A stretch of 64,000 bases of DNA from Candidatus Omnitrophota bacterium (GTDB taxonomy: Bacteria; Omnitrophota; Omnitrophia; JAHJGZ01; JAFGJY01). Location of the stretch: NCBI GenBank assembly GCA_016928875.1, contig JAFGJY010000089.1, positions 3,625-67,624 on the forward strand. The letters are read 5' to 3'. Within the stretch, counting starts at the first letter, position 1; every line of letters begins with the position of its first letter. The notes beneath the pieces are model-generated. The model had not been told where the DNA came from and searched no databases. It saw only the letters and a list, made by a program, of their open reading frames with translations. This document shows positions 1,340-64,000 of this stretch, piece after piece. The translations under genes and the position numbers were made by a program.

Positions 1340-1455
1340 AGCCTCATAGGATTTAATTATTTAATTATTGCAATATATTATTGCTATTTTACCAATGTTA
1401 AAAAGCAATGCAAATGATTTATGCAATTACAATATCTCTTTTTATTGTATCCACC

Positions 1456-1567
1456 GTGCACTATGAACTATGAACAATGAACCATGCACTATTTATTCCT
1501 TACTTTTGCCTTTTAACTTTTTACTTGGCAATGGACCGTCGACCATGGACTATGAACCATGCACCAT
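1456..1567. repeat. CATG-word low-complexity blocks (direct 13-mer atgaaccatgcac at 1477..1489 and 1552..1564) flanking an AT-rich core
   Basis: gtgcactatgaactatgaacaatgaaccatgcactat and ggaccgtcgaccatggactatgaaccatgcaccat. The same word class occurs at 39989..40010, 61119..61148 and 61524..61552, followed by ttcgtaattactaattcgtaatt (CGTAA-word class). Confidence 0.7.
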
Positions 1568-1614
1568 TTCCGCCATTCGTAATTACTAATTCGTAATTTC
1601 TAATTGTCTTTCCC

Positions 1615-37814: not shown

Positions 37815-38798
37815 TTACAAATACCCATTTGAAACATACCACTCATAGGTGCGTTTAAGTCCTTCTTCAATGCCGATACGTGGCGTATAGCCAAGATCCT
37901 GCGCAGCCTTTTTATTGGAAAAACCTCTGTTCTCCCAATACCACTCGGCACGCCGCTTAAAAAGGGGTGGCGTAATACCAAAGGGTTTACATACCCATTC
38001 ACAGGCGCATGAGACCCATAACAAAAGCCAATACGGTGCATATATGAATTTGAACTTCTTATTCATCACCTTGCCGACATATGTCACCAGATCGATCAAA
38101 GAATAATAATGTTCGTCCCCTATTAAATAGGCATTTCCAACGGCCGTTGCCGATACCATTGATTCCATGAACGCATCAACGAGATTATCTATATATACCG
38201 GATGATAGGTTATCTTCCCCGATCCAAACATCGGAAAATACCCCTTCTTGACCTGCTTGAAAATCATGAGAAAGCGTCCCGGATCACCCGGACCGTAAAT
38301 AGCGGTCGGCCTCAAAATAACAGTGGTAAGACCGTTTCCCTTAAATTCTTTGACGACTTTCTCCCCTTCATATTTTGAAAACTCATAATAATCCTTAGGG
38401 TTTATCGGTGCGTTTTCATCAGCCGGCGTTATATCAACTTTGCCATGAACACCTTCGGTACTACAATATATAAGACGCTTGACACCCGCATTCATCGCAG
38501 CATTACACACAATACGTGTGCCTTCGACATTAACTGACCAATAAACAGCTTTCGGCAGATCAACACCGCGAAAGGCAGCGGCTAAATGAAATACGATCTC
38601 ACATCCCTCCATTGCGCGCTCGACAGCATCTTTATCTGTAACGCTTCCATAGATGATCTCTACTCCAAGGCTTTTTAATTCTTTATCAAAAAGCCCCTCC
38701 TGATTATCAAGGCTCCTTACCTGATGCCCGTCATGCACCAATCGTCTTACCAAATGATGCCCCGTAAATCCCGTTCCGCCAGTGACTAGTATTTTCAT
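37815..38798 (-). CDS. NAD-dependent sugar epimerase/dehydratase (extended SDR)
   Basis: VTGGTGFTGHHLVRRL, YEFSKYEGEK (YxxxK). GGAGAG RBS before ATG 38798. Confidence 0.85.
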   Translation of the reverse strand: MKILVTGGTGFTGHHLVRRLVHDGHQVRSLDNQEGLFDKELKSLGVEIIYGSVTDKDAVERAMEGCEIVFHLAAAFRGVDLPKAVYWSVNVEGTRIVCNAAMNAGVKRLIYCSTEGVHGKVDITPADENAPINPKDYYEFSKYEGEKVVKEFKGNGLTTVILRPTAIYGPGDPGRFLMIFKQVKKGYFPMFGSGKITYHPVYIDNLVDAFMESMVSATAVGNAYLIGDEHYYSLIDLVTYVGKVMNKKFKFIYAPYWLLLWVSCACEWVCKPFGITPPLFKRRAEWYWENRGFSNKKAAQDLGYTPRIGIEEGLKRTYEWYVSNGYL

Positions 38799-38812
38799 AT
38801 ACTCTCCTGTAA

Positions 38813-39158
38813 TTTAGTTATTCGTAAATCGTAATTCGTAAAAAGTAATGCGTAAATCGTGGTTAGTATCTAGTGCCTCGTGTATCCTAATAATAAGCCA
38901 AATATCGGGACGTGCACTCCTTAAAATATATCTATTTTGAGGATAACGTCAAAACTTTAATCAGGGAAACATTTTTAGGATTTATATTTTGCGCACAGAT
39001 TAGTTGATGCGATAACTCTTTTATTTCAATTACGTTATGAACATACACCACGTTTTACGCCTTACGTTTTACGCATTACGCTTCACGCCTCACGTTTTAC
39101 GCATCGCGCCTCACAATTCACCAACCACAATCCACCAGCCACGATTCACCAACCACCT
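38813..39158. repeat. ORF-less inverted-repeat cassette: CGTAA-word arm (38813..38860), ~185-nt core, TTACG-word arm (39049..39113) plus CACCAACC-word block (39114..39158)
   Basis: The arms are mutually complementary word arrays. The 16-mer gtaattcgtaaaaagt (38831..38846) is identical to 39404..39419. The 22-mer gccttacgttttacgcattacg (39059..39080) is identical to 41863..41884. Confidence 0.75.
38925..38952 (-). promoter_or_regulatory. Candidate sigma70-type promoter inside the ORF-less cassette core
   Basis: The minus strand reads TTGACG (38952..38947) - 16 nt - TATATT (38930..38925), ~125 nt upstream of the epimerase ATG. The context is AT-rich, so a chance match is possible. Confidence 0.2.
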
Positions 39159-39382
39159 ACATTATTCCTGACCTTTTCTTTTATCGCCCTATACGTTGTC
39201 ATCTGTTGTATTTCAGCCATCGTGAATTTCATCGAAAACTCGTTTTCAAGCGCTGTGATCATACGTAAATGTGTCATCGAATCCCAATCACCATGAGACA
39301 CCTGGGAAAAATCGTCATTAATAGACTTTACATCAATATCAAAAAAATCCGCCAGAAATTCTTTTAATTGGTCTTCCATCAT
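39146..39382 (-). CDS. Acyl carrier protein
   Basis: 78 aa with GDWDSMTHLRMITALENEF (the DS phosphopantetheine-attachment Ser context). The last codons VGGW-stop are encoded by the CACCAACC-word block. Confidence 0.85.
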   Translation of the reverse strand: MMEDQLKEFLADFFDIDVKSINDDFSQVSHGDWDSMTHLRMITALENEFSMKFTMAEIQQMTTYRAIKEKVRNNVGGW

Positions 39383-39425
39383 ATACCTCGTAAGTCGTAA
39401 AATGTAATTCGTAAAAAGTTAATTG

Positions 39426-39785
39426 TTAGCGTTTCAACGAAAATATCAAACCATTTAACATCTTTTTTATGTCTGTTATTTCTTGTTCAATCTTAAAGGC
39501 ATCTTTAACATAACCCTGTTTTTGTGCTATCACAATATGTGTATCTAATTCTGCAAGAGAACCGAGAGCCACATACAAGAACTGCGCAAACTCCTTTTTT
39601 GATTGCCTGCCTGCACCCTCGGCTATATTGGCCGGGATCGATACAGCAGCACGACGCATTTGACTAATCATCCCAAACTTTTCATCATCAGGAAAAGCTT
39701 TCACTAATACATAGATGTCGCTTACAAGTTCTATGCTTCTTTTCCATACATCGAGATCTTTATGACTTTTGTAAGTACTCATCAC
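39426..39785 (-). CDS. Four-helix-bundle protein (23S rRNA intervening-sequence protein family), copy 1
   Basis: ..KDLDVWKRSIELV..FPDDEKFGMISQMRRAAVSIPANIAEGAGRQSKKEF.QFL.VALGSLAELDT.. is the hallmark of this family. Start is GTG 39785 or ATG 39782. Confidence 0.9.
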   Translation of the reverse strand: MMSTYKSHKDLDVWKRSIELVSDIYVLVKAFPDDEKFGMISQMRRAAVSIPANIAEGAGRQSKKEFAQFLYVALGSLAELDTHIVIAQKQGYVKDAFKIEQEITDIKKMLNGLIFSLKR

Positions 39786-39802
39786 GCCTCACGTTTTACG
39801 CC

Positions 39803-41668
39803 TTACGTCTTACGAATTACCTCGATCCACGGCGTCTCAGTAATGCTACCTTTAACATCAGTACACTCGTACTCTACCGTCCCGTCATCCAGCTTCATCA
39901 CGACCTCAAACCCATGTTCATCAAAAAACGTCTTACACGGCATATTCTTCTTCGTCGGCACATACTCCGCCTTTATCTTATCTATGCCCCATGCACCATG
40001 CACTATGCACTTTTTCAGCACTCCCATCGCCGCCGCCTCTATCCCTCGCCCGAGCGCTCGGCAACTTATTATAAAACTATCTATTACCGCTTCTTTATTT
40101 TCAATTTTTACGAGGTATGTCCCAATAATGCCCAAATTCCCGAACTTATCTTCTGCTTCAACTACATGAAGAATACAATTATTATCTTTATAAAAAATCT
40201 CAATATCGCCAATATCGTAGCGTTTTGTAGTTACATTAAACTGATTGGTTTTAATAAATAACTGGTGAACACGCGCAAGCTGGTCTGTGTTGGGTTTATA
40301 GACCCGCACGGATGTACCTAGCGAATGCAAATACTCATTAATGTCAGTAATAGCACTTTTCTCCTCTTCCCGCTTCCGTTGCTGTTTGTATTGGATTGAC
40401 TTGGTCGCATCTTCGGCCGTGATAGTCAAACGTTCAAAGCACGGCAACGAATAAATAAGAGGTGCATATTCAACGGGGTCATCAGATAACTGTATGGTCA
40501 TGACATCAGGCTGCGCTTCCCTCATAAGCTCGCATTCCGCCGGATTGTCATCTATAAAGACAATACTATCGAGCCCAATATTAAGCTGCCCCGCGATCTT
40601 TGCTATATTCACCGCTTTAGGCTCCCAATCGACCATGATCGCGGAAAAATCATCCAATGAAAGGGGCATCTCTGATGCACGCAGTTTAAAAAGCTCTTCA
40701 ACATCCGCCATATTGTTCTTACTGCAAATCGCTAACAGTATCCCTCTCGCCTTAAGTGACTTTATTGCATATTGGAACGCCCTAAAGGCTTCAGCCTGCG
40801 GATTACCCTGTCCTATCAACACACCCTGCGGCCCATCTTCACCTACTATACCGTCCCACAATGTATTGTCCAGATCAACAACTAAACACTTCATTGCGCA
40901 TCCCTTGATCACTTGAATATATCGAGCAATATCAGCAGCCATAAACCGCATGAAATCATCCGACCATTCGATCTTGGATAAATAATAAAAGGTATCGTCA
41001 CATGCACGTTCACTGCCAAACCGATTAACGGCACCCGCAAGATCATAAATAACAACGCGTGGATCCTTCTTAAATGCCGTACTCAACATAGTGTTAAGGT
41101 GAGCGTAAAATGCACTTTCACCAGCCTCACTTTTTGTATCAGCGATCCCATACGCTTTACGTGCCGGCATTGCAAAATTTGCCACCATGATCATCGACTT
41201 TGTGCTCTTAGAAACCATTTGAACCCACTGTTTACATTCATCGATGATACGGGCAGCCTCAGCTTTATGTTCTGCCGATGATAAAGAGCTATACTGATAA
41301 TAAATATCCGGAGACAATTCTCGCAGTGATAATTGGAAGAAAATGACGCTAGGCTTAGCGGCATATAGGCCAGATTGCGGATTAAGCGCCTCCTGTTGGT
41401 ACTGTCCATAGGGGGCTACATATTCAGAGATCGATATCCCTCTGCACAGCGCTGATGCAATAACATTACGTGAAATTACATCAAGGGTAGTATTTCCCAC
41501 AAATGAAACTTTAATATCCGTTTTATCAGCCTCTTTATTCTTTTTATAAATCAAATCAATGTCCTTTGAGGAAAGGTCTTCAGAAGCAACAGACACAAGT
41601 ATCTTCTTCAACGCAGAAATCGACTCACTATTTTTTATCGACTCTCTTAATTGCTTATTATCACTCAT
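39803..41668 (-). CDS. FkbH-like HAD-IIIC phosphatase/acyl-loading protein with C-terminal GNAT-like domain
   Basis: CLVVDLDNTLWDG (HAD DxDxT) and IFIDDNP. 621 aa. The last codons VIRKT-stop are encoded by the TTACG-word arm. Confidence 0.8.
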   Translation of the reverse strand: MSDNKQLRESIKNSESISALKKILVSVASEDLSSKDIDLIYKKNKEADKTDIKVSFVGNTTLDVISRNVIASALCRGISISEYVAPYGQYQQEALNPQSGLYAAKPSVIFFQLSLRELSPDIYYQYSSLSSAEHKAEAARIIDECKQWVQMVSKSTKSMIMVANFAMPARKAYGIADTKSEAGESAFYAHLNTMLSTAFKKDPRVVIYDLAGAVNRFGSERACDDTFYYLSKIEWSDDFMRFMAADIARYIQVIKGCAMKCLVVDLDNTLWDGIVGEDGPQGVLIGQGNPQAEAFRAFQYAIKSLKARGILLAICSKNNMADVEELFKLRASEMPLSLDDFSAIMVDWEPKAVNIAKIAGQLNIGLDSIVFIDDNPAECELMREAQPDVMTIQLSDDPVEYAPLIYSLPCFERLTITAEDATKSIQYKQQRKREEEKSAITDINEYLHSLGTSVRVYKPNTDQLARVHQLFIKTNQFNVTTKRYDIGDIEIFYKDNNCILHVVEAEDKFGNLGIIGTYLVKIENKEAVIDSFIISCRALGRGIEAAAMGVLKKCIVHGAWGIDKIKAEYVPTKKNMPCKTFFDEHGFEVVMKLDDGTVEYECTDVKGSITETPWIEVIRKT

Positions 41669-41703
41669 ATTTTGGAATATTAAAGGTAGGGTTTCTTATA
41701 TAT

Positions 41704-41833
41704 GTCGCGTCCCGGCTTGTTTTATGTCATTCCCGACTTACTTCACGTCATTTCCGACTTGCTTCACATCATTCCCGACTTGCTTCATGTCATTCCCGAC
41801 TTGCTTCATGTCATTCCCGCGAACGCGGGAATC
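41704..41833. repeat. 21-bp half-palindrome stutter array (about 6 units) ending in a full palindrome
   Basis: Units start at 41704, 41726, 41747, 41768 and 41789 (gtcattcccgacttgcttcat and variants). The terminal unit is gtcattcccgcgaacgcgggaatc (41810..41833). Confidence 0.85.
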
Positions 41834-41862
41834 TATATTGATGTTTCCGTTTAACTTCCCAT

Positions 41863-41949
41863 GCCTTACGTTTTACGCATTACGTCTTACTCCCCGCTAT
41901 CCACCAAGCACTAATCACCAACCACCAACCACTAACCACCATCCACCAA
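41863..41949. repeat. Second copy of the composite TTACG-word + CACCAACC-word block
   Basis: gccttacgttttacgcattacgtcttac, then atccaccaagcactaatcaccaaccaccaaccactaaccaccatccaccaat. It has the same order and orientation as 39049..39158. Confidence 0.8.
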
Positions 41950-44022
41950 TTACTCCACCGCATTCACAACTTTTTGAAGATCAATGCTATCCACTGTGCC
42001 GCTACTGTCAACATCACCGTCAGCAGTGGCCGGCGTTCTTTCGATCACTTGATCTTTTACAATAGTAACATCATCAGCATCGATATCACCGTCCTTGTCT
42101 ACATCTTCTACTAATAATGCTCCAAGATCAGTAATCACTACATCGTCAAAGCTTGCAGCGTCATTATAACTACCGAAACCCACTCTGCCTTGCGGAAGAG
42201 TAACTCCGGTAGCTTGCATAACAAGATTTGTATCAAAGTAAACAGATACGGTGCTACCTTGATAAATAACTCTGACAGGATGAAATGCATTATCCGTTAC
42301 AAGGGCAGCTGCTGTATAACTGGTCAATTCTGTCCTTGTACCATTTACAATCCTAAACAGCTGATTTGAAGCAGCATTAGCATTAAATATTGCATAATAA
42401 TAATTGCTCGCATCTGTATACCCAAACACAACAGCATAGTCTGCATATCCATTCGCCACTAAGTCTTCATCAGAACGAGCATCAAGTTCGATATCAAACG
42501 TATCAAATGATTGGCTATTGAATAATGTATACTCCCCCAACATATCACCGTCTTGGTTAAAATCGGTGGTATTTATCGAATATACGATATTGCCTCCCTC
42601 ATCAACAGTTTCCCATCTACTCCCTGTTTTAGGGGAATAATTTACGGCATTCCCCGCTGTCCCGGGAGCAAAGATAGCATTTGCCGGCGCAGATTCTATA
42701 GTGAACTGATAATTTACCTGCGGCATTACATTAGCCGGATCATGAAGGTCCTGAGCATTAACCTTAATGTCAACATTTTGACCATAACTAAACGGCTGAG
42801 CAGGAGTAAATGTCACTAAATAGTCATTTTGTGAACCTGATATTGTGGGATTAACAAGCTGATCATTTACATACAAACGGATCGATGATTGATCAACCCC
42901 TTCACCCGCATCTAACACATGAAAACTAATTGGAGTATTTGCAGAAACATTAGTACTATTAGCTGTAGGAATGTGCGACGAAATATACGGAGAAGAAAAA
43001 TCATCACCCCCTGATTGACCAATAGTAACTGGGAACCCTACGCTTGGATCTCCATTATTATCAATCACAAACAAATACACTTGATTACCACTCTGAAAAG
43101 TCCCTGTGTTTACTTCTACACTAATGGACGACGCATTCCACGATGTCGGGATTTGTAGCTCACGATGAGTGCAAGCGTTATAGCTCATATTGTTACCTAT
43201 GACAACGCGTGACCAGCTTGAATCTATATATGCATCATCCATTTGAAGCAATGAGCCATCTGTTATGTCACCATAATTGCTATGCCATCCGAACCTATAA
43301 AATCTCCAGGACCCAAGAGAAGTAGAACCACCTAACCACTGGAGATTATCAGATGGATCCAAGTTACAACCACTCTTTAACTCACCATCAACATACCATC
43401 GGGCATATCCATCAGTGGCTATATTTGACGATGGAACACGAATAATAAATTCAAATAAATGCCATTGGTGGAGAGACATATCCCTTGGCGTCCATCCATC
43501 AATCATACTATATGCCGGATTGGCGTTGTTTGGGGTTAAATATGCTGAGCCGCTGACTTCTGACCAACAAAATTCAGCACCAATATCACCACCATGAAAT
43601 CTCATCCACTTATATCCATTTCCCCAGCCTGCATCCGACCAATTCCAGTTGCCAGTACATTTATACCACACAGCAGCATAAAACTTTCCACCATAGGTCG
43701 GTGGCATTGAATTCTTATTATCAAGTGCGCGAGCCCAATTTGTACCCATATCACCCTGCGCAACACCGCCACGCTGCCCATCACTTACAGTTGTAAGCTG
43801 GTAAGGATTGCTCCACTCACTTATATCAATACCATCTTCAAAGTCATCAAAAACCTGAGGAGCTGCTGTTGTTTTAGTCCCAAAGGAACTTCCTCCAATT
43901 GTGACAATTGCCTCATCAGAAAATTCACCACTTACATTATTAATTATTGGAGCAGCACAAACAGAAGAACCACAAGCCACTAGAATTAAAGAAAGAAAAA
44001 GCATGATATATTTATTTTGCAT
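41950..44022 (-). CDS. Secreted multidomain protein: ConA-like/LamG-type jelly-roll domains, Ig-like domain, C-terminal type-I dockerin
   Basis: Start MQNKYIMLFLSLILVACGSSVCAAP (signal peptide; GGAG RBS) at 44022. C-terminus DVDKDGDIDADDVTIV...DGDVDSSGTVDSIDLQKVVNAV is a duplicated Ca-binding dockerin repeat. The middle ..ISFHVLDAGEGVD..IRLYVNDQLV.. is Ig-like. Confidence 0.6.
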   Translation of the reverse strand: MQNKYIMLFLSLILVACGSSVCAAPIINNVSGEFSDEAIVTIGGSSFGTKTTAAPQVFDDFEDGIDISEWSNPYQLTTVSDGQRGGVAQGDMGTNWARALDNKNSMPPTYGGKFYAAVWYKCTGNWNWSDAGWGNGYKWMRFHGGDIGAEFCWSEVSGSAYLTPNNANPAYSMIDGWTPRDMSLHQWHLFEFIIRVPSSNIATDGYARWYVDGELKSGCNLDPSDNLQWLGGSTSLGSWRFYRFGWHSNYGDITDGSLLQMDDAYIDSSWSRVVIGNNMSYNACTHRELQIPTSWNASSISVEVNTGTFQSGNQVYLFVIDNNGDPSVGFPVTIGQSGGDDFSSPYISSHIPTANSTNVSANTPISFHVLDAGEGVDQSSIRLYVNDQLVNPTISGSQNDYLVTFTPAQPFSYGQNVDIKVNAQDLHDPANVMPQVNYQFTIESAPANAIFAPGTAGNAVNYSPKTGSRWETVDEGGNIVYSINTTDFNQDGDMLGEYTLFNSQSFDTFDIELDARSDEDLVANGYADYAVVFGYTDASNYYYAIFNANAASNQLFRIVNGTRTELTSYTAAALVTDNAFHPVRVIYQGSTVSVYFDTNLVMQATGVTLPQGRVGFGSYNDAASFDDVVITDLGALLVEDVDKDGDIDADDVTIVKDQVIERTPATADGDVDSSGTVDSIDLQKVVNAVE

Positions 44023-56640: not shown

Positions 56641-57551
56641 ACCTCCCACCGCTTCATTTTTACTATCAATTTGTGGCCTGATAAAAAGAATATCAAATGA
56701 TCGAATTGCGCGAAGAGCCAAAATAACGGATATGTCAGTGAATACGCCATAAATAGTTTCTTGTATTTATTCATGTCATGTGAAGTCACGACGTTGCCTT
56801 TGGATGGTTCTGTGTTCTGGGTTGCACGCTCGGATAAGTTCTGAGTTCCGAGTTCTGAGTTCTGGGTAGCGACATTGGATGAGTTCGGGGTTCGGGGTTC
56901 GGGGTTCTGAGATGTACACTCTGAACTCTGAACTCTGAACTCAGAACCTTTTAACAATCCCATCCCAAAACAAATAATGATGTCTATCAATTCCGAAAAG
57001 AAACGTGAATAGGCCCGGGATGTGGCTACATCAAAGCTATCGAAGAGCTCTGCAAGCTCTTTTTTTGTATACCCGGGGCGTACATGCCCGTGCTTTTCGT
57101 CTGTTAACCCTAGCATATATTGTAAAGGCCGTATGAGTGACCACGATACTTTATGCGGCGCAAGTACTATTAATTCACCTTCCGGCTTCAATATGCGTTT
57201 AATTTCCAGCGCAAAAGCGTGATCGTCCTCTACGTGTTCTAGCATATCAACGATAACGATAACGTCAAAAGCATGATCAGCAAATGGCAGATGAGGCGGA
57301 TTGTCGATATGCACGACATTAGTTTTAACCAATGACTCGATCGAGTTAACCGTTTCCATACTGAGATCCGCACTCGTCCATTGACCACCTTGCTGTCGCA
57401 ATAAATAACTGATAACACCATTATCAGAACCCAGATCAAGACAGGCCTTGTTATCTAGGTTAGGTAGTAAACGATTAATCTGGTGCCATTTTTCTTTCTT
57501 GAGCACTGATTTTGAGAATAATTTTAAATGCCAATTATCCATTGCGTTCAC
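56637..57551 (-). CDS. Class I SAM-dependent methyltransferase (type 11) with an in-frame repeat insertion near the C-terminus
   Basis: CLDLGSDNGVISYLL (motif I), FDVIVIVDMLEHVEDD. The segment SEFRVQSSECTSQNPEPRTPNSSNVATQNSELGTQNLSERATQNTEP is encoded by the repeat at 56807..56948. Confidence 0.8.
   Translation of the reverse strand: MNAMDNWHLKLFSKSVLKKEKWHQINRLLPNLDNKACLDLGSDNGVISYLLRQQGGQWTSADLSMETVNSIESLVKTNVVHIDNPPHLPFADHAFDVIVIVDMLEHVEDDHAFALEIKRILKPEGELIVLAPHKVSWSLIRPLQYMLGLTDEKHGHVRPGYTKKELAELFDSFDVATSRAYSRFFSELIDIIICFGMGLLKGSEFRVQSSECTSQNPEPRTPNSSNVATQNSELGTQNLSERATQNTEPSKGNVVTSHDMNKYKKLFMAYSLTYPLFWLFAQFDHLIFFLSGHKLIVKMKRWEV
56807..56948. repeat. ORF-less GTTCTGAG-word palindromic element inside the methyltransferase CDS
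   Basis: The left arm gttctgagttccgagttctgagttctggg (56838..56866) matches the reverse complement of the right arm ctctgaactctgaactctgaactcagaacc (56919..56948) at about 25/29 positions. The centre holds a gttcggg x3 tandem (56883..56905). Confidence 0.8.
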
Positions 57552-58557
57552 TCGTCCCTACTAATTTACGTAATGCCCCATACCCCAAATACTGATCGGC
57601 CAAAAATGTTATTGCATATTGAAACGGAATCCCGCCGATCTGCTTACGGCACAGGCGGTCGCATTTCTTACAAAGTGAAAGCTCGTTAACGTTCCCTGCT
57701 AAATTACGCCGGAGCGTTGTATACGCCGCGCCGTTCCATATTTCTTTAATAGAACTCTTGCTGACGTTCCCGAGGTTCATACACGCCATAAAGTCCTGAG
57801 GACAAGGCGTTACGGTTCCATCCCAACATATGACCATTGCGTACCATGGGAACGTGCATACATTACCGTTCAGGATCTCGCCGCCTTTATTCGATTCAAC
57901 GGCCCAGTCATATTCCTGCTTAGTAATGATCTCATTTACCCCAAGGTCACGGAATTCCTGCTCAAGCGCGCGCGTCTCAGCCGTGTCAACGTTCATGCTC
58001 TCATCTTTAAAATGAATACGTTCGATAACAATGTACGGGAGTGCCTCCCTCAACTGTTTCTTGCGTTTGAGGAGTTCTTTTATGTTCGCCACCGTTGTCT
58101 CAAAATTCCCGCCGCGACGGACCTTTTCGTATACATCCTTGGTAAAACCGTCAAAAGAAATAGATACTAAATTCGGGGCGGCTTCGATAAGGAGTTCTGA
58201 CTTATCAAGCGAAAGCAACCCGGCATTGGTGTGAAAACGCACTGCAATCCCTCTATTCTTTGCATATATGATCATTTTAAAGAGGTCTTTGTTCGTAAGC
58301 GGTTCCCCGCGATGATGCAAATAGACATCATTCACAAAATCTTTAGCCTCATCAATGATCTTTTTAAAGAGTTCAAAACTCATCTTCCCTTTCTTCTCTG
58401 CGGCCAAATCTTTGTTTGGGCACATCACACATTTGAGGTTACAGATCAGGCTTGACTCGATCCACAGCTTGATGGGCATGGTATCGAGCGTGGTCTTACG
58501 GCGCTTAAAGTTCGCGAGTATTTTGGCGAGGGTGTAGGTCTTATGTATAAAGTTCAT
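57535..58557 (-). CDS. Radical SAM enzyme with SPASM/twitch-like C-terminal Cys cluster
   Basis: SSLICNLKCVMCP (CxxxCxxC). C-terminus CTFPWYAMVICWDGTVTPCPQDF..C...CKKCDRLC. Paralogue of 11690..12781. Confidence 0.8.
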   Translation of the reverse strand: MNFIHKTYTLAKILANFKRRKTTLDTMPIKLWIESSLICNLKCVMCPNKDLAAEKKGKMSFELFKKIIDEAKDFVNDVYLHHRGEPLTNKDLFKMIIYAKNRGIAVRFHTNAGLLSLDKSELLIEAAPNLVSISFDGFTKDVYEKVRRGGNFETTVANIKELLKRKKQLREALPYIVIERIHFKDESMNVDTAETRALEQEFRDLGVNEIITKQEYDWAVESNKGGEILNGNVCTFPWYAMVICWDGTVTPCPQDFMACMNLGNVSKSSIKEIWNGAAYTTLRRNLAGNVNELSLCKKCDRLCRKQIGGIPFQYAITFLADQYLGYGALRKLVGTSERNG

Positions 58558-58580
58558 AGTTCTGGGTTCTGGGTTCTGGG

Positions 58581-58943
58581 TTATTTTAATTTTTGTGAAA
58601 AAGTAAATATCATTCGTGATAATATGTCTAATTCTTCTAATAGAGCCTTTTGTTTATCATCAGTAATATATCCTTGGTTCGCGGAAATAAACACTTGCGT
58701 TTCAAGTTCTGCGATAGAGCCACGTGCTACTGCTAAAAATTGTTTAAATTCCTTCGCATGATTTCTTCTGAATCCCTCAGCAATATTTGATGGGACCGAA
58801 ACTGAAGCCCGTCTCATTTGAGATATCATCCCAAACTTCTCGTCTTCTGGATATTTTTTCGTGATCTCATATATAGCATTGACGATATCCATCCCTTTCT
58901 GCCATATTTTTAAATCTTTATAGTGCTTTATTCCTTCTGTCAT
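58581..58943 (-). CDS. Four-helix-bundle protein (23S rRNA IVS protein family), copy 2
   Basis: ..YKDLKIWQKGMDIV..YPEDEKFGMISQMRRASVSVPSNIAEGFRRNHAKEFKQFLAVARGSIAELET.. . Confidence 0.9.
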   Translation of the reverse strand: MTEGIKHYKDLKIWQKGMDIVNAIYEITKKYPEDEKFGMISQMRRASVSVPSNIAEGFRRNHAKEFKQFLAVARGSIAELETQVFISANQGYITDDKQKALLEELDILSRMIFTFSQKLK

Positions 58944-58966
58944 AGTTAATTATAACTTTCTACTAA

Positions 58967-59100
58967 GTCCTGGGTTCAGCGTTCTGTGTCCTGAGTTAAT
59001 TCAACTTCTTTGCGAATGTTAATATCAAATGCTTTTTTCTTCTCTTATTCTAATATCCTAGCGTTCAACCCAGAACCCAGAACGCTGTACTCTGAACTCA
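58967..59100. repeat. GTTCTGGG-word arms upstream of 4HB copy 2 (an inverted pair around an AT-rich ~65-nt loop)
   Basis: gtcctgggttcagcgttctgtgtcctgagtt (58967..58997) pairs with gttcaacccagaacccagaacgctgtactctgaactca (59063..59100). There is a perfect 10-mer pair at 58977..58986 / 59078..59087. A third arm, gttctgggttctgggttctgggtt, lies at 58559..58582. Confidence 0.8.
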
Positions 59101-60186: not shown

Positions 60187-61146
60187 TTATTTAATTATTT
60201 CAGCTGTAACTGTACTTAATTTTTCCGCTTTGTATTTTCCTTGCCGTAAAATGATCACGCTTAATAACGCTAAAAAAATAAAATGCGTCACCAGCATGAG
60301 CATCAGCAATGTCGCTCCGGGAAAGACGATGCCCGGCGTATGCGCAAAGATATAATGTTCTATGGTCGCGATGAGACAGAGCACGCTTAATGCCAGGAAC
60401 GGTAATGTCCAGAACGCGAAGAATAATGCCGGCTTTGTTGAGAAACGAGTTAAAAGCACCATAGTAAATAGATCCGCAAACACCTTGAACGTCCGTGAAA
60501 GCCCGTATTTTGATTTCCCATACACCCTCGCATAATGGTTCACCGGCATCTCCGCGGTACGAGCACCGGTGATCGAAGCCACTGCCGGGAAAAAGCGATG
60601 CATCTCAGCGTATGCCTGCACTTCCCTGATACATTCCCGTTTGTATGCCTTGAGCGAACAACCGTAATCGTGCAAATGAACGCCGGTGAGGATCGATATG
60701 AGCTTATTGGCACACATTGAGGGTAACTTGCGCGTTAAGAATTTATCCTGGCGTTTGTACCGCCACCCGCTCACGACCTCATAGCCTTCGTCCATCTTAT
60801 CAAGCAACTTTTTCATATCAGCCGGATCGTTCTGCAGATCGCCGTCCATGGTAATAATGATATCGCCGCGTGCGTGATCGAAACCCGCGACCATGGCCGG
60901 CGTCTGGCCGTAATTCTTTCTGAAGCGGATAACGCGCAGGTCATTGGTGCCTGACACCAACTGTTTCAATATCTCAGGTGTCTTGTCACTCGAGCCATCA
61001 TCGATCAATATGATCTCATACGAACGCCCAAGCTTTACCGCTTCATCGTGGACACGCTCATAGAGCTTCTTAACGCATTCTTGTTCGTTGTAAATAGGAA
61101 TTACGATCGACAGATCAGGGTTCATGGTGCATAGTTCATGGTTCAT
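60187..61146 (-). CDS. GT2 polyprenol-phosphate glycosyltransferase (ArnC/GtrB-like)
   Basis: LSIVIPIYNEQE..ILIDDGSSDKT..ITMDGDLQNDP plus C-terminal TM helices. ATG 61146 forms ATGA with the 4HB stop. The first 7 codons (MNHELCT) lie in the repeat arm; an alternative start is ATG 61125 (MNPDLSIVIP). Confidence 0.85.
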   Translation of the reverse strand: MNHELCTMNPDLSIVIPIYNEQECVKKLYERVHDEAVKLGRSYEIILIDDGSSDKTPEILKQLVSGTNDLRVIRFRKNYGQTPAMVAGFDHARGDIIITMDGDLQNDPADMKKLLDKMDEGYEVVSGWRYKRQDKFLTRKLPSMCANKLISILTGVHLHDYGCSLKAYKRECIREVQAYAEMHRFFPAVASITGARTAEMPVNHYARVYGKSKYGLSRTFKVFADLFTMVLLTRFSTKPALFFAFWTLPFLALSVLCLIATIEHYIFAHTPGIVFPGATLLMLMLVTHFIFLALLSVIILRQGKYKAEKLSTVTAEIIK

Positions 61147-61508
61147 GGTACGATACTCTTCATTAATGCTGTAATTTTACGGCCTAATTGAGACAGCAAG
61201 CTCAATAATCGTTCTTTAATTTCATTATTTAAAAATCCCAAATTATATGAAAGCATTACTTGCGTTTCTAATTCAGCTAACGACCCTCGCGCGATACTCA
61301 AAAACTGCTTAAACTCTTTCTTGTGTGAACGTCGAAACCCTTCTGCAATATTCGAAGGAATTGAAACCGCAGCTCTTTTCATTTGTATAACAATTCCATA
61401 TTTTTCTTCATCGGGATAATTGCTACAGACCTCGTAGACAAATTTAGCCAAGACCATCCCCTCTTGCCACACGATCAAATCTTGATATGTCTGTATCTTT
61501 TTATTCAT
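61143..61508 (-). CDS. Four-helix-bundle protein (23S rRNA IVS protein family), copy 3
   Basis: MNKKIQTYQDLIVWQEGM..YPDEEKYGIVIQMKRAAVSIPSNIAEGFRRSHKKEFKQFLSIARGSLAELET.. . The start at 61508 was chosen by alignment with copies 1 and 2; the ORF-track GTG at 61535 lies in the repeat arm. Confidence 0.9.
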   Translation of the reverse strand: MNKKIQTYQDLIVWQEGMVLAKFVYEVCSNYPDEEKYGIVIQMKRAAVSIPSNIAEGFRRSHKKEFKQFLSIARGSLAELETQVMLSYNLGFLNNEIKERLLSLLSQLGRKITALMKSIVP

Positions 61509-61552
61509 ATTCTTTATTGCTTTACCATGCACCACGCACTATGCACCATGCA

Positions 61553-62386
61553 CTATACTTTCAGGGAATCCCCATACTCCGCGATGGTCATGAATTCATT
61601 GCCCGACATGATCGCACGCAATTTTGATTCTGTTTTATCAAGGTTTATATAATGTCGGAATGCTGCTAACGCGTTCGTCGTTATGCGCGGCTGTTCCGGA
61701 TCGAATTCCCACGGATGAAAGTACATATTCACAACCTGCTCTGCGGCATTGACCTGTTGCATACATTTTTTTATTACCCATAAAGGCAACATTCTAAAGT
61801 AACCGCCGCCGGCAAAGGGTATCCTCTTACCTAATACTTCTGCGGTTGATATTGGTATCTCCTGCAACTGCCCTTTTTGCGTTTTTATGACATACGGATA
61901 ACGCTCTTTACTCGGCAAGCCATAATGATCATGATGCATCGGGAACAATGATGAGTCGAACTCAATCCCAAGTTCTTTTATAACATCATATGCCCACATG
62001 GTCTTCCGTGATATTGAAAAGCATGGCGCTCGATAGGACCTTATCTTCTTCTGCGCCAAGGTGCCTAATATCTGCAGAGACCTTTCTACATCTTTCTTAT
62101 ATTCTTCTTGAGTTTGTTTGTATACGAGTTCATGCCCATAGCCATGAGAGGCGATCTCATGGCCACGTTCGGCAATGTGTCTTATCACATCAGGACGTTT
62201 TTCTGCCACACACCCAAGCACAAAAAAGGTCGCCTTGGCATTATGATCATCGAGGATACGCAATATTCTCATGAGGCCTACGGTAAGACGTGAGTCGAAG
62301 TTCTTCCACTCGTCCTGACGTATGACAGACTTGAAGTTCTCCACTTGGTAATATTCTTCGACGTCGAAGGTGAGTATGATCTTCAC
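61553..62386 (-). CDS. Polysaccharide deacetylase (NodB-type; resembles the DUF3473/PEP-CTERM-locus subfamily)
   Basis: VKIILTFDVEEYYQVENF.., ..IASHGYGHE.., C-terminal ..YFHPWEFDPEQP. GTG 62386 is preceded by AAGGAG at 6-nt spacing. The ORF-track ATG 62440 lies in a repeat (IRYTIY words). Confidence 0.8.
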   Translation of the reverse strand: MKIILTFDVEEYYQVENFKSVIRQDEWKNFDSRLTVGLMRILRILDDHNAKATFFVLGCVAEKRPDVIRHIAERGHEIASHGYGHELVYKQTQEEYKKDVERSLQILGTLAQKKIRSYRAPCFSISRKTMWAYDVIKELGIEFDSSLFPMHHDHYGLPSKERYPYVIKTQKGQLQEIPISTAEVLGKRIPFAGGGYFRMLPLWVIKKCMQQVNAAEQVVNMYFHPWEFDPEQPRITTNALAAFRHYINLDKTESKLRAIMSGNEFMTIAEYGDSLKV

Positions 62387-62444
62387 TTGGTGCTCCTTGT
62401 ATATCGTATAGCGTATTGCGTCGTGCGTATTGCGTTGCACCCCT

Positions 62445-62555
62445 CGTCATCATTACGAAAGAGTGCAGGGCCCTTGCTTCCGTCGTCATTGCGAAAGAGT
62501 GCAGGGCCCTTACTTCCGTCGTCATTGCGAGTGAACACAGCGCTCTTACTCTTCA
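62445..62555. repeat. 36-bp half-element stutter array (about 3 units) leading into MITE A copy 3
   Basis: Units cgtcatcattacgaaagagtgcagggcccttgcttc (62445..62480), cgtcgtcattgcgaaagagtgcagggcccttacttc (62481..62516), and a degenerate third unit. Confidence 0.8.
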
Positions 62556-62664
62556 TGTCATCCTGAGACGAGCGCAGCGAGGCGAAGGATCCAGGATATT
62601 TGTTCACTAGGTTCGCATAACCTGGGTCCTTCGTCACGCCTTTGGCGTGACTCAGGATGACAGC
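62556..62664. repeat. Hairpin MITE family A, copy 3 (intergenic)
   Basis: tgtcatcctgagacgagcgcagcgaggcgaaggatccaggatatttg...cctgggtccttcgtcacgcctttggcgtgactcaggatgacagc. The frame VILSHAKGVTKDPGYANLVNKYPGSFASLRSSQDD is open. Confidence 0.85.
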
Positions 62665-62801: not shown

Positions 62802-62905
62802 TGTCGTCCTCAGCCTCTTCCCTTTGTCGTCCCGGAATTCTTCTGTCGTCCCCGCGGAAGCGGGGATCTCGGTACTTAGGTCCCCGCTTTCGCGGGGACG
62901 ACATG
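62802..62905. repeat. Family B palindromic element, copy 1, preceded by about 21-bp tgtcgtcc stutter units
   Basis: tgtcgtcc starts at 62802, 62824 and 62844, then gtccccgcggaagcggggat-ctcggtacttag-gtccccgctttcgcggggac (62844..62905). Confidence 0.8.
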
Positions 62906-62931: not shown

Positions 62932-64000
62932 TTATGTTCTCGGATTCCACGTAACTAATTTCTTCCCCCTCAGCCACTGGATGCCGGCGACCATAGAGGC
63001 GTAGTTGACAAGGCACAAATAGTAACAGAGACGGATAACTGAGTATATCGTATTTCGTATATCGTATTTCGTCGCACCATTGTCGTCATTGCGTCTCTTG
63101 CTGTCATCCTGAGGAGTTTCGCCTTCAGGCGGAACGACGAAGGATCCAGGATATTCGTTCACTTGATTCAAGTAACCTGGGTCCTTCGCCCCTTCGGGGC
63201 TCAGGATGACAGCGGCTGCGCCGGAACGAACATATCCATACACCGCCAATGCATAAAATACCAACTGCAGCGTAAACAGCACGTGATACAACGTACCGGC
63301 CGGGATGAGAAAATAATTGGTTATAAAGACGACGAGCTGCATCCAGCCTATATCATAACGGAATCCCTTGTGTGAGATGATCTGCCAGCTTACAAGGCCA
63401 TTATTAAAAACGTTAAACGATAAGTCCTTAAATTTCATGAGCGCATGAATGCTGCGGAGCGCCACGCGCACACGCATCGAAAATTCTTCTTCATGGGTCT
63501 CATTTGCATCTTCAACGATCACCGCTTCGGGCTCATAGACAACGCGGTAATTTTTCTGCATAACTGTTAAAGGCAATACGAAATCCGGTAGGTCTTCAGC
63601 GTCCATATCTTCATAAAGCTCTAGACGACAGGCGTCTATACCGCCGTCAACGCCGATCACAGAGCCGACCTTGGTCTCGAGTTTGCGCAATGTGTTCTCA
63701 TAGGCCATGTAGGCGCCGCAGCCTTCACTGACACCGCTGTCTGTCTTTGTCTGATAGACCATTTTACCCGTTACGTAGCCGACGGTCGGGTCTGCGAAAT
63801 TACGGATAAGGGCTTTTATAGCTCCTGGTTTATATATAGAATTAGCATCGCTGAAGATAAGAATAACATCACCGTTATCACCTATTGTCGTCCCCGCGGA
63901 AGCGGGGATCTCGGTACTTAGGTCCCGGCTCTGCGGCCGGGATGACATGGCTAGGTCCCCGCTTTCGCGGGGACGACATGAATCGGTGCCGGGACGACCT
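62932..64000 (-). CDS. GT2 glycosyltransferase with C-terminal TM helices, partial (N-terminus beyond window end), carrying two in-frame repeat insertions
   Basis: ..DVILIFSDANSIYKPGAIKALIRNFADPTVGYVTG.. (GT-A D-x-D/DAN region), ..EDLPDF.., and C-terminal TM segments. The frame stays open upstream of ATG 63948 to position 64000, so the true start lies outside the window. Confidence 0.7.
   Translation of the reverse strand, partial: GRPGTDSCRPRESGDLAMSSRPQSRDLSTEIPASAGTTIGDNGDVILIFSDANSIYKPGAIKALIRNFADPTVGYVTGKMVYQTKTDSGVSEGCGAYMAYENTLRKLETKVGSVIGVDGGIDACRLELYEDMDAEDLPDFVLPLTVMQKNYRVVYEPEAVIVEDANETHEEEFSMRVRVALRSIHALMKFKDLSFNVFNNGLVSWQIISHKGFRYDIGWMQLVVFITNYFLIPAGTLYHVLFTLQLVFYALAVYGYVRSGAAAVILSPEGAKDPGYLNQVNEYPGSFVVPPEGETPQDDSKRRNDDNGATKYDIRNTIYSVIRLCYYLCLVNYASMVAGIQWLRGKKLVTWNPRT
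63102..63213. repeat. Hairpin MITE family A, copy 4 (inside the GT2 CDS, in frame)
   Basis: tgtcatcctgaggagtttcgccttcaggcggaacgacgaaggatccaggatattcg...cctgggtccttcgccccttcggggctcaggatgacagc. Translated as AVILSPEGAKDPGYLNQVNEYPGSFVVPPEGETPQDDS. Confidence 0.85.
63886..63980. repeat. Family B palindromic element, copy 2 (inside the GT2 CDS, in frame)
   Basis: Same as 62844..62905 but with an extra internal palindrome, gtcccggctctgcggccgggat. Translated as ..RESGDLAMSSRPQSRDLSTEIPASAGTT.. . Confidence 0.8.

Follow-up and report, generated by a model that had tools for sequence, protein, structure and literature searches.

A four-helix-bundle gene held between complementary heptad arrays at an FkbH–ACP operon junction: a probable messenger-RNA counterpart of the 23S rRNA intervening sequence

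The 23S rRNA of Coxiella burnetii contains an intervening sequence (IVS) of 428–444 nt that carries an S23p open reading frame (ORF) and three to four copies of the heptamer GACAGAT, with a copy number that varies between strains, and its terminal stem has been shown experimentally to be cut by RNase III (PMC4990558). Tandem 7-nt units are also found in intergenic regions between co-oriented genes, as the GGGAATC pairs of Xanthomonas and the STRR and GGGGAYT units of cyanobacteria; these often occur as convergent inverted pairs that could fold into stem–loops, are transcribed and vary in length between species (PMC4692102). Literature searches that combined the names of the four-helix-bundle (4HB) family with heptamer or heptanucleotide repeats returned the Coxiella paper as the only one linking both (PMC4990558), and we found no description of a general 4HB-plus-heptad-arm architecture in the searchable literature.

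We analysed a stretch of 64,000 nt (the window) from a Candidatus Omnitrophica genome, in which a 4HB gene lies within a polysaccharide cluster. This gene (39426..39782, minus strand; 118 aa from an ATG start) forms the core of a 441-nt cassette (c1) and is its sole ORF. It is preceded by an FkbH-family gene (39803..41668, minus strand; 621 aa; TIGR01686, E = 2.2e-85, and PF21211) and followed by an acyl carrier protein (ACP) gene (39146..39379, minus strand; 77 aa from the second ATG; PF00550, E = 2.8e-5), the TGA stop of which falls inside the heptad GGTGAAT of the next array. An earlier, sequence-only reading had proposed that the FkbH–ACP pair is split by a 4HB gene that brings inverted arms of its own, and our analysis bears this out. 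The c1 protein belongs to the S23p or '23S rRNA intervening sequence protein' family (PF05635, E = 1e-38; TIGR02436, E = 5.5e-38), matches PDB entry 2GSC (XCC0516; E = 9.3e-28) and is present as an identical gene call in both NCBI and Logan. The family is very large: with c1 as the one query, our search found 2,845 proteins at E ≤ 1e-20 among 6,216 scored candidate clusters. We know of no function for the TIGR02436/PF05635 family outside DGR Avd. No Rfam family matched across 38500–42200, and c1 sits between FkbH and ACP, outside 23S rRNA. A promoter and terminator scan gave no signal exceeding shuffled expectation, and each of the three 4HB genes of the window (c1, c2 and c3) is co-oriented with its own operon.

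The arms of c1 are two period-7 arrays in opposite orientations. On the coding strand, the upstream arm (39784..39823, minus strand) runs from a leading CGAG through GTAATTC, GTAAGAC, GTAAGGC, GTAAAAC, GTGAGGC and GTGATGA. This purine-rich series of six heptads (GTAAnnC/GTGAGGC) leads into the 4HB start codon, supplies the GAGG that precedes the 4HB ATG and, read directly from the sequence, contains stops in all three frames within 18 nt. The downstream arm (39384..39424, minus strand) consists of the inverted heptads TTTTTAC, GAATTAC, ATTTTAC, GACTTAC and GAGGTAT (nnnTTAC); it is pyrimidine-rich and complementary to the upstream array, and its last unit is the ACP Shine–Dalgarno. Pairing between the arrays can give an imperfect stem of about 30 bp, measured as 39390–39419 against 39791–39820 (30 nt, 80% complementary), which is close to the longer imperfect arms matching at 21 of 29 positions that had been described earlier. 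The 11-bp inverted repeat described with them is also real, GTAATTCGTAA (39404–39414) being the exact reverse complement of TTACGAATTAC (39810–39820), but its interpretation as the perfect ends of an element did not hold. It is one register of the two tandem arrays, several others of which are able to pair. By itself the 11-mer is weakly unusual, as 11 bp was reached in 45 of 2,000 shuffles of the 441-nt region, whereas the arms as a whole are unusual, with an arms-only duplex of −25.8 kcal/mol (z = −5). When the whole transcript of c1 was folded to its minimum free energy, no significant structure emerged and the terminal stem stayed open (z = −0.65), and arm strength was lowest in c1 among the three cassettes of the window.

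Both neighbouring genes draw on these arms. The codons GTA ATT CGT AAG ACG TAA (39803–39820), which encode V, I, R, K, T and stop, come from the upstream arm, as had been noticed before, and the tail of FkbH beyond the conserved PWIxV motif is arm-supplied and non-ancestral, in keeping with the earlier proposal that the FkbH C terminus had been rewritten. In the comparison with cassette-free loci that this proposal called for, the VIRKT end was absent from L085, an Omnitrophota locus that is the only syntenic cassette-free relative (FkbH 54% identical) and ends in ..PWIRV-VTGD. L085 has no 4HB ORF, yet it carries heptad arrays at the same codon boundary of the FkbH–ACP junction, and its FkbH tail is likewise array-encoded (VVTGD, compared with IRKT in c1). 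Other FkbH homologues have unrelated tails of 0–10 residues, and in a cyanobacterial homologue a plain spacer of 50 nt separates the FkbH and ACP genes. At the other end of c1, CGAGGTA lies 1–4 nt ahead of the two ACP ATGs, consistent with its reading as the ACP ribosome-binding site, and the GAGG of this site forms part of the degenerate heptad with which the downstream arm ends. Because the upstream array closes all three frames, FkbH is terminated four codons past its conserved end, and because the arms provide this stop, both the GAGG and the start codon of the 4HB gene, and the GAGG of ACP, the cassette has replaced the spacer while breaking neither neighbouring gene. FkbH relatives were 34–35% identical in GTDB representative genomes and, apart from the 100% identical NCBI protein of the source Candidatus Omnitrophica metagenome-assembled genome, at most 54% identical in the protein database; in the absence of a close cassette-free orthologue, the ancestral junction was thus compared at deep divergence only (L085 and L086).

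The two other cassettes of the window share this layout, with different heptads but complementary arms in each case, and terminal inverted repeats enclosing the ORF are clear in both. Cassette c2 (58548..59099, minus strand; 4HB gene 58581–58943) has GTTCTGG-type units upstream (59066–59099), an inner complementary copy (58966–58997) and CCCAGAA-type units downstream (58548–58582), with an arms-only duplex of −43.2 kcal/mol (z = −8.3); the TGA stop of the upstream GT2 gene is at the start of the arm, and the ATG of a radical-SAM gene lies in the last heptad. Cassette c3 (61115..61558, minus strand; 4HB gene 61143–61508) has GTGCATG-type (61523–61558) and CATGAAC-type (61115–61152) arms, with a duplex of −44.2 kcal/mol (z = −6.3). 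Here the first heptad contains the TAG stop of a deacetylase gene, and ACCATGA units contain both the 4HB stop and the start of a GT2 gene. Altogether the window holds at least five unrelated heptad units. Heptad arrays also occur in elements that have no ORF. A sister of c1 lies between the ACP and epimerase genes (38813..39157, minus strand), where a forward array (39050–39157; (GGTGGTT)n(CGTAAnn)n), a 200-nt loop and an inverted array (38813–38849) give 41-nt arms that are 78% complementary (−40.3 kcal/mol, z = −5.5); tblastn detected no 4HB remnant in it, and the ACP–epimerase junction of L085 measures just 15 nt. A second ORF-less hairpin (56833..56951, no strand assigned) sets GTTCTGA/GTTCGGG arrays opposite ACTCTGA arrays in 30-nt arms that are 87% complementary and spaced 50 nt apart. 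Upstream of FkbH, forward arrays of eight GGTGGTT and four CGTAAnn units (41865..41949, minus strand) contain unit types that recur in the arrays around ACP.

To place these cassettes in a wider context, we compared 68 homologous 4HB loci from metagenomes. Inverted similarity between the flanks reached a score of at least 12 in 66% of loci, compared with 25% for direct similarity, and flank duplexes fell below z = −2 in 56% of loci and below z = −3 in 35%. Strict period-7 arrays were found in 24 of 68 upstream and 31 of 68 downstream flanks but in only 8 of 410 control segments, and 7 and 8 were the only repeat periods across these loci. About one-third of the loci had no clear arms; worked examples of armed cassettes include one from the cultured genus Thermodesulfovibrio, where the cassette (locus L089) is flanked by an epimerase gene and an oxidoreductase gene. 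In many cassettes the arms directly abut the start and stop of the ORF, so that the loop is the gene alone. Neighbouring genes were mostly on the same strand (upstream, 30 same and 4 opposite; downstream, 40 same and 3 opposite). Upstream arrays were 62% purine, with three-frame stops in 15 of 26; downstream arrays were 39% purine, and their stops fall on the antisense strand. We also considered the upstream arms as arrays of Shine–Dalgarno motifs, but as the motif density was just 1.3-fold that in shuffles matched for composition, we dropped this as an independent claim. The 16 related loci that lack flanking ORFs were all located outside 23S rRNA. One of these loci lies 2.2 kb from a 16S end, with no 23S after it.

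The history of such cassettes can be followed at an orthologous exopolysaccharide junction (Wzz–ExeA), where the flanks are 65–88% and the 4HB genes 78–99% identical, and heptad copy number and arms vary between orthologues. Of four look-ups at this junction, two met an occupied site, where the gene of one (L090) appears to be decaying; a third (L093) met a junction that has kept its heptad arrays without the ORF, and the fourth a locus with different synteny. No clean empty site was found in these four look-ups or at the syntenic FkbH–ACP junction of L085. Related cassettes have thus been passed on by vertical descent while staying at one junction of the operon. The closest relative of the c1 protein is 65% identical, and the ends of the element are therefore not definable from paralogues. 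We suggest that c1 is an old resident of the FkbH–ACP junction rather than a recent transposition with terminal inverted repeats and a target-site duplication, and that the ORF-less heptad hairpins at neighbouring junctions may be its degenerate or non-autonomous relatives.

The explanation that we favour, with a probability of roughly 60%, is that c1 is an IVS-type 4HB element hosted by an operon mRNA: a co-directional, promoter-less module of about 440 bp in which heptad arrays bracket a PF05635/TIGR02436 gene. With the same confidence, we regard it as equivalent in kind to the S23p-encoding IVS of 23S rRNA, in a messenger-RNA host. The 23S rRNA IVSs (Coxiella burnetii, Leptospira and Xanthomonas-type S23p) are similar in size to c1 and encode proteins of the same PF05635 family. 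Both have a sense-oriented ORF between terminal inverted repeats of a stem of about 28–30 bp, which in c1 is a potential stem, and both have tandem heptamers right before the start codon, with a copy number that varies among strains or orthologues. They differ in host, which is helix 25 or 45 of 23S rRNA for the IVS and the mRNA of a protein-coding operon for c1, and in that the arms of c1, unlike those of the IVS, also serve both neighbours, giving the gene before the cassette its stop and the gene after it a ribosome-binding site or start. The stem of c1 is also less perfect (80%) than that of the IVS, and excision of c1 by RNase III is a prediction. By analogy with the Coxiella IVS, the stem formed by the arms in a read-through transcript would be a substrate for a double-strand-specific RNase such as RNase III; c1 would then be cut from the polycistronic mRNA, or would at least modulate the stability and coupling of the flanking cistrons. 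The arrays may grow, shrink and switch unit through slippage, with selection for pairing or template-switch copying possibly maintaining their complementarity.

The most serious alternative, which we consider unlikely but well short of negligible, is that the arrays are intercistronic repeats found throughout the host genome, comparable to REP/BIME, cyanobacterial STRR or the GGGAATC pairs of Xanthomonas, and affect how mRNA is stabilised, processed or coupled in translation, while the 4HB gene forms no unit with them and is a passenger that tends to sit, or survive, in their loops. Period-7/8 arrays were present in 22 of 64 other intergenic gaps of the 4HB-carrying loci, and this frequency at other junctions means that the arms may be a feature of the host genome rather than part of the gene's unit. 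The ORF-less hairpins at 38813–39157 and 56833–56951 and at the junctions of L085 and L093 fit this alternative, as does the recurrence of identical unit types across several junctions of one operon, and Xanthomonas has 70–75 convergent heptamer pairs that were described without a link to 4HB genes (PMC4692102). Against this, arrays were enriched next to 4HB genes (42 of 70, compared with the 22 of 64 elsewhere), the arms of many cassettes abut the ORF without a gap, the arms keep a consistent polarity with respect to the ORF, and the rRNA IVS is a package of gene and heptad stem in a wholly different host molecule (PMC4990558). Although the Xanthomonas/Nostoc-type pairs and the arrays of the window are both convergent tandem 7-nt units in intergenic regions, the former use one G-rich (G3–4) unit per genome, which has been discussed as a G-quadruplex former (PMC4692102), whereas the window has several unrelated units within 64 kb and those of c1 are A/T-rich. 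The ORF-less heptad hairpins occupy intercistronic positions similar to those of REP/BIME, which are presumed to influence mRNA stability. A REP is one imperfect palindrome of conserved sequence, mobilised by a RAYT transposase; the arms here, by contrast, are tandem heptads of variable sequence, and we saw no RAYT.

We consider it improbable that c1 is a DNA transposon or MITE-like element bounded by terminal inverted repeats that inserted at CGAGGTA and generated a 7-bp target-site duplication; insertion of the cassette, with a possible target-site duplication, had been suggested from the sequence alone. TACCTCG does occur at both 39384 and 39818, and c1 thereby resembles an insertion sequence or MITE, with short inverted sequences around a small intergenic insert and both the 11-bp inverted and the 7-bp direct repeat at the outer ends of the arms. 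A repeat of at least 7 nt at that position was found in about 0.5% of cross-locus control pairs, and L085 has a weaker, 5-nt repeat (TAGGG) at the two equivalent positions. However, the duplication was not supported. Among 37 non-redundant cassettes, the longest direct repeats between the outer ends of the arms were distributed as in the cross-locus null, and c1 alone had a 7-mer; the earlier reading had itself proposed to judge the duplication by other copies, and these showed no flanking direct repeats beyond chance. Three of the seven repeated bases belong to the heptad phase (GTA/TAC) and four to the GAGG of the ACP ribosome-binding site, and the repeat also includes FkbH codons, each of these components having constraints of its own. 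Moreover, the arms are tandem arrays with units that are unrelated among the three cassettes of this one genome and differ between orthologues, leaving no conserved termini, which counts against an element defined by terminal inverted repeats and a target-site duplication. The neighbours that we tested are biosynthetic enzymes, with no transposase, integrase or reverse transcriptase among them, and the vertical inheritance of orthologous cassettes and the retention of arrays at ORF-less junctions also argue against transposition. 4HB genes nevertheless occur at many unrelated junctions, for example cmr3/cmr2 (PMC3936711), and this requires some means of relocation. An integron attC-type cassette was rejected, as c1 has two arms rather than one site, no nearby integrase and no cassette array.

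Slightly less probable still is that the arms function in DNA, as cruciforms, slipped strands or substrates for replication template switching or recombination, and that quasi-palindrome correction makes them complementary as a by-product with no role in RNA. Stem mismatches were strand-symmetric (43 G:U and 43 A:C in 37 stems, with no G:U excess) and the sense duplex was more stable than the antisense duplex in 39 of 68 loci, which amounts to no sense-strand preference; these two results thus give no specific pointer to pairing in sense RNA over pairing in DNA or on either strand. Array unit and copy number turn over rapidly between orthologues, and in one group of loci (cluster C) identical 4HB ORFs have different flanks that break at the ORF-proximal edges of the arrays, although these breaks may be chimeric joins made at repeats during metagenome assembly. 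By contrast, the purine- and stop-rich upstream arm and the roughly 90% co-orientation with neighbouring genes are properties of the sense strand, and for the Coxiella stem a role as an RNA substrate has been demonstrated (PMC4990558).

Avd is a basic pentameric protein that works with nucleic acid and a reverse transcriptase and is homologous to the c1 protein in four-helix-bundle fold and family, but we think it very improbable that c1 encodes an Avd-like partner of a reverse transcriptase located elsewhere, with DGR-like retro-mobility of a stem-bounded RNA, which would account for the co-orientation with host transcripts and for weak Avd homology (PF22296, E = 0.0022; PHROG 'Avd protein of DGR', E = 2.9e-8), given a DivGenRetAVD (NF033474) score of 20.5 bits against a cut-off of 80, the lack of a reverse transcriptase or a template/variable repeat pair near c1, c2 or c3, the lack of matches to PADLOC defence models and the lack of evidence for recent copies.

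If c1 is an mRNA-hosted counterpart of the rRNA IVS, then non-rRNA members of the 4HB family keep the IVS architecture, a gene in the loop of a tandem-heptad stem, and this architecture would tie together the rRNA intervening sequences, the intergenic excess of heptanucleotides and the 4HB genes scattered through operons, including cas loci. It would predict RNase III processing sites within operons and the uncoupling of the flanking cistrons. For annotation, arrays can supply the C-terminal tails, stops and starts of neighbouring genes, and such sequences should not be taken as ancestral protein. A broader proposal, which we put forward tentatively and regard as possible rather than probable, is that 4HB genes and complementary 7- or 8-nt arrays make up a widespread, undescribed class of 'messenger-RNA intervening sequences' that occupy intercistronic positions in the operons of many phyla, are insulated by their own stops and ribosome-binding sites, undergo RNase III-type excision or rewiring, and leave heptad hairpins behind when the ORF is lost, with the rRNA IVS as a special case. 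If this were true, ORF-less hairpins would account for much of the long-noted excess of heptanucleotides in bacterial genomes.

All genes around cassette 1, which lies between the FkbH and acyl carrier protein (ACP) genes, are carried on the minus strand. They are an FkbH-family gene (39803-41668; TIGR01686, E=2.2e-85), a four-helix-bundle (4HB) gene of 118/119 aa (39426-39782/5; PF05635, E=1e-38; TIGR02436 'four helix bundle protein', E=5.5e-38) and an ACP gene of 77/78 aa (39146-39379/82; PF00550). The nearest solved structure to the 4HB protein is XCC0516 (PDB 2GSC, E=9.3e-28). NCBI entries of a Candidatus Omnitrophica MAG contain FkbH and 4HB proteins 100% identical to those of the window, and the gene order was reproduced in an independent Logan assembly. 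The nearest relative of the 4HB protein is 65% identical, so nothing points to a recent insertion. An Avd-type function of this protein is unlikely (20.5 bits where the cut-off is 80, with no reverse transcriptase nearby). We interpret cassette 1, with a probability of about 0.6, as a 4HB cassette of the 23S rRNA intervening sequence (IVS) type, with heptad-array arms, residing in an mRNA operon.

A repeat finder and TRF both revealed period-7 structure on either side of the 4HB gene. On the coding strand, the upstream arm reads GTAATTC GTAAGAC GTAAGGC GTAAAAC GTGAGGC GTGATGA, with the 4HB ATG in the last unit, and the downstream arm reads TTTTTAC GAATTAC ATTTTAC GACTTAC GAGGTAT, with the ACP ATG directly after it. 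Because both arms are periodic, they can pair in several registers; the one with the perfect 11-mer covers 16 nt at 88%, and the flush register covers 30 nt at 80%. This 11-mer inverted pair (39404-39414 and 39810-39820) and the heptamer TACCTCG at 39384 and 39818, both described in the sequence-only reading, are exact. The 11-mer alone was matched by 45 of 2,000 shuffles, and the arm duplex as a whole reaches -25.8 kcal/mol (z = -5). The TAA-bearing units of the upstream arm close all three frames within 18 nt, and the FkbH C terminus (V-I-R-K-T-stop) is encoded inside this arm. In all, the arms provide stops in three frames, the RBS and start of the 4HB gene and the RBS of the ACP gene. The module runs in the same direction as its operon, its arms are mutually complementary, and a promoter/terminator scan detected neither element of its own.

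A tblastn search found exactly three 4HB genes in the window. Cassette 2 (gene at 58581-58943) has GTTCTGG-type and CCCAGAA-type arms (duplex -43.2 kcal/mol, z = -8.3, arms only), and cassette 3 (gene at 61143-61508) has GTGCATG-type and CATGAAC-type arms (-44.2 kcal/mol, z = -6.3, arms only). The arm units are unrelated from cassette to cassette, yet complementary within each pair. In both loci, whose neighbours encode GT2, radical-SAM/SPASM and polysaccharide deacetylase proteins, the stop codon of the upstream gene falls in the first heptads and the ATG of the downstream gene in the last. Cassette 2 (58548-59099) is three-armed: besides its upstream and downstream arms, it has a complementary inner copy located 70 nt inward of the upstream arm. 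The upstream arm can pair either locally or around the whole gene, so two alternative structures are possible. The cassette 3 unit is shared by an array within the FkbH coding sequence (39980-40016; GTGCATA GTGCATG GTGCATG GGGCATA), in a variable loop that exceeds that of the closest homologue by 6 residues, perhaps through an in-frame expansion of three heptads.

Heptad pairs dominate the inverted repeats across the window. In an ORF-less element at the ACP/epimerase junction (38813-39157), a loop of 200 nt separates the forward array, (GGTGGTT)n(CGTAAnn)n, from an inverted one, and the arms measure 41 nt; the ACP stop TGA falls in one of the element's heptads. A sigma-70-like site lies in the loop (38952-38925, minus strand). 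A 119-nt heptad-only hairpin without an ORF (56833-56951) has GTTCTGA/GTTCGGG facing ACTCTGA in 30-nt arms that are separated by 50 nt and show 87% complementarity. Upstream of FkbH, the intergenic region (41669-41949) consists only of repeats: GGTGGTT eight times, CGTAAnn four times, a CCCGCGTTCGCGGG hairpin and the 21-mer ATGACATGAAGCAAGTCGGGA five times. More arrays (ACTATGA/ACCATGC, ATTCGTA and GACCCTT types) occur without a nearby 4HB gene towards the left end of the window (1450-1605 and 3288-3322). Inverted repeats of ~55 nt (62581-62635 and 63136-63190) bracket ~500 nt in a region where heptad arrays (62397-62435, 63040-63075) and tandem repeats of 36 bp (62445-62550) are also present. 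The window has copies of a REP-like palindrome, TGTCGTCCCCGCGGAAGCGGGGATCT / AGGTCCCCGCTTTCGCGGGGACGACA, at 62844-62903 and 63886-63978, and the palindrome also occurs in another Omnitrophota genome (locus L085, 1398-1422, in the FkbH-ACP spacer); it is a second intergenic repeat family, unrelated to the heptads.

We retrieved 80 metagenome loci with an alignment of the window's three 4HB proteins, the homologues being 46-60% identical to that of cassette 1. Among the 68 loci with both flanks, a flank similarity score of at least 12 was reached by 66% in inverted orientation versus 25% in direct orientation, and the flank duplex energy had z < -2 in 56% and z < -3 in 35%. Strict period-7 arrays were present in 24 upstream and 31 downstream flanks of these loci, versus 2% of control segments. 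The only periods found were 7 (33 flanks) and 8 (14 flanks). Upstream units are diverse (GGTGAAT, AGTGACG, TAGGGAT, TAGTTTG, GTTTCGA, GTTGTCA and others), with the complement downstream. The 4HB gene lies on the same strand as its upstream neighbour in 30 cases versus 4 opposite, and as its downstream neighbour in 40 versus 3. Arm polarity is fixed: upstream arms are purine-rich (0.62), with stops in all three frames in 15 of 26, and downstream arms are pyrimidine-rich (purine 0.39), with stops on the antisense strand. A Thermodesulfovibrio genome carries the same build between epimerase and oxidoreductase genes.

By analogy with rRNA, the arm duplex would form in the read-through transcript and RNase III would process it. 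The full cassette 1 transcript showed no closed terminal stem at minimum free energy, stem mismatches showed no excess of G:U (43) over A:C (43), and sense duplexes were not more stable than antisense ones. These three results make it possible that arm complementarity arose at the DNA level, by template switching, or that the arrays are host repeats. Arrays also occur away from 4HB genes: they occupy 42 of 70 gaps adjoining a 4HB gene versus 22 of the 64 remaining intergenic gaps of the 4HB-carrying loci. A transposon with terminal inverted repeats and a target-site duplication (TSD) is not supported, as the arms are tandem arrays and 37 cassettes gave no direct-repeat signal.

That TSD had been suggested in the sequence-only reading from the 7-bp direct repeat. 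We compared the longest direct repeat at the outer ends of the best stems in 37 non-redundant cassettes with that in cross-locus pairs. Repeats of at least 5 nt occurred in 19% of cassettes versus 10% of cross-locus pairs, distributions that we judged the same, and cassette 1 had the sole 7-mer. Three components account for its repeat, CGAGGTA: the phase of the heptads, the Shine-Dalgarno GAGG of the ACP gene and the FkbH codons E-V. Given this null-like distribution and mixed make-up, we consider a TSD unsupported, although this single locus may carry one.

The only syntenic relative found for the cassette 1 locus, L085 in Omnitrophota GCA_042576765.1, has the window's gene order: FkbH (54% identical), ACP, epimerase, hexapeptide transferase, LPG-synthase-like and AsnB. 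No 4HB gene is present at its FkbH-ACP junction. The 158-nt spacer there begins GTGACTG GTGACTA GTGGTTG GTGGTTA GTGTTTG and ends, ahead of the ACP RBS, with TTTTACG CATTACG TTTCACA AATTACA; the corresponding Okeania spacer is plain and 50 nt long. FkbH ends PWIRV-VTGD-stop in L085, with the stop inside a heptad, versus PWIEV-IRKT-stop in the window, and more distant homologues have 0-10 unrelated residues beyond the same motif. These differing tails indicate that the tail is array-derived, not ancestral, in agreement with the earlier proposal that the arm supplies it. The L085 junction is an ORF-less array rather than an empty site. The ACP/epimerase junction, which holds the ORF-less heptad element in the window, is 15 nt long in L085.

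One orthologous EPS-locus junction, with a Wzz-type gene on one side and an ExeA-type ATPase gene on the other, harbours the eleven cassettes of cluster B. Identity is 65-88% across their flanks and 78-99% among their 4HB genes; the arms are CGTAAGG/CCTTACG heptads, of the cassette 1 type, in varying copy number. Among further relatives, the junction is occupied in L094, probably holds a decayed 4HB gene (86-aa call) in L090 and lacks an ORF in L093, where the spacer has arms of period 8 built from another unit. As read from these sequences, cassettes reside long at a junction, their arrays evolve rapidly and the ORF is occasionally lost. In cluster C (L070, L071, L072, L073 and L075), five metagenome contigs share a 100% identical 414-nt 4HB ORF with partly different flanks, the breakpoints lying 28 nt ahead of the start and 6 nt past the stop; either array recombination or chimeric assembly could account for this. 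In L071, the arm region also occurs as inverted copies 1.4-2.5 kb downstream. In L050 (1-6342), consecutive junctions of a PEP-CTERM-type EPS operon of Thermodesulfobacteriota hold two 4HB cassettes and one heptad hairpin lacking an ORF; L090 and L093 represent relatives of this operon.

In Coxiella burnetii, the IVS occupies helix 45 of 23S rRNA, measures 428 nt and contains an S23p ORF of the PF05635 family; its RNase III cleavage site is at the first of three/four tandem heptamers (GACAGAT), just upstream of the ORF, and heptamer copy number differs among strains (PMC4990558). Cassette 1 resembles it in protein family, size (441 nt), orientation, heptamers and terminal complementarity, but its host molecule is an mRNA operon rather than 23S rRNA. 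Intergenic heptamer pairs have been described in Xanthomonas and Nostoc without a 4HB link (PMC4692102), and cas operons with internal 23S_rRNA_IVP genes have been noted (PMC3936711). In the limited collection of literature searched, we found no description of the 4HB and inverted-heptad architecture outside rRNA. The architecture of cassette 1 matters in that it is widespread and apparently undescribed.
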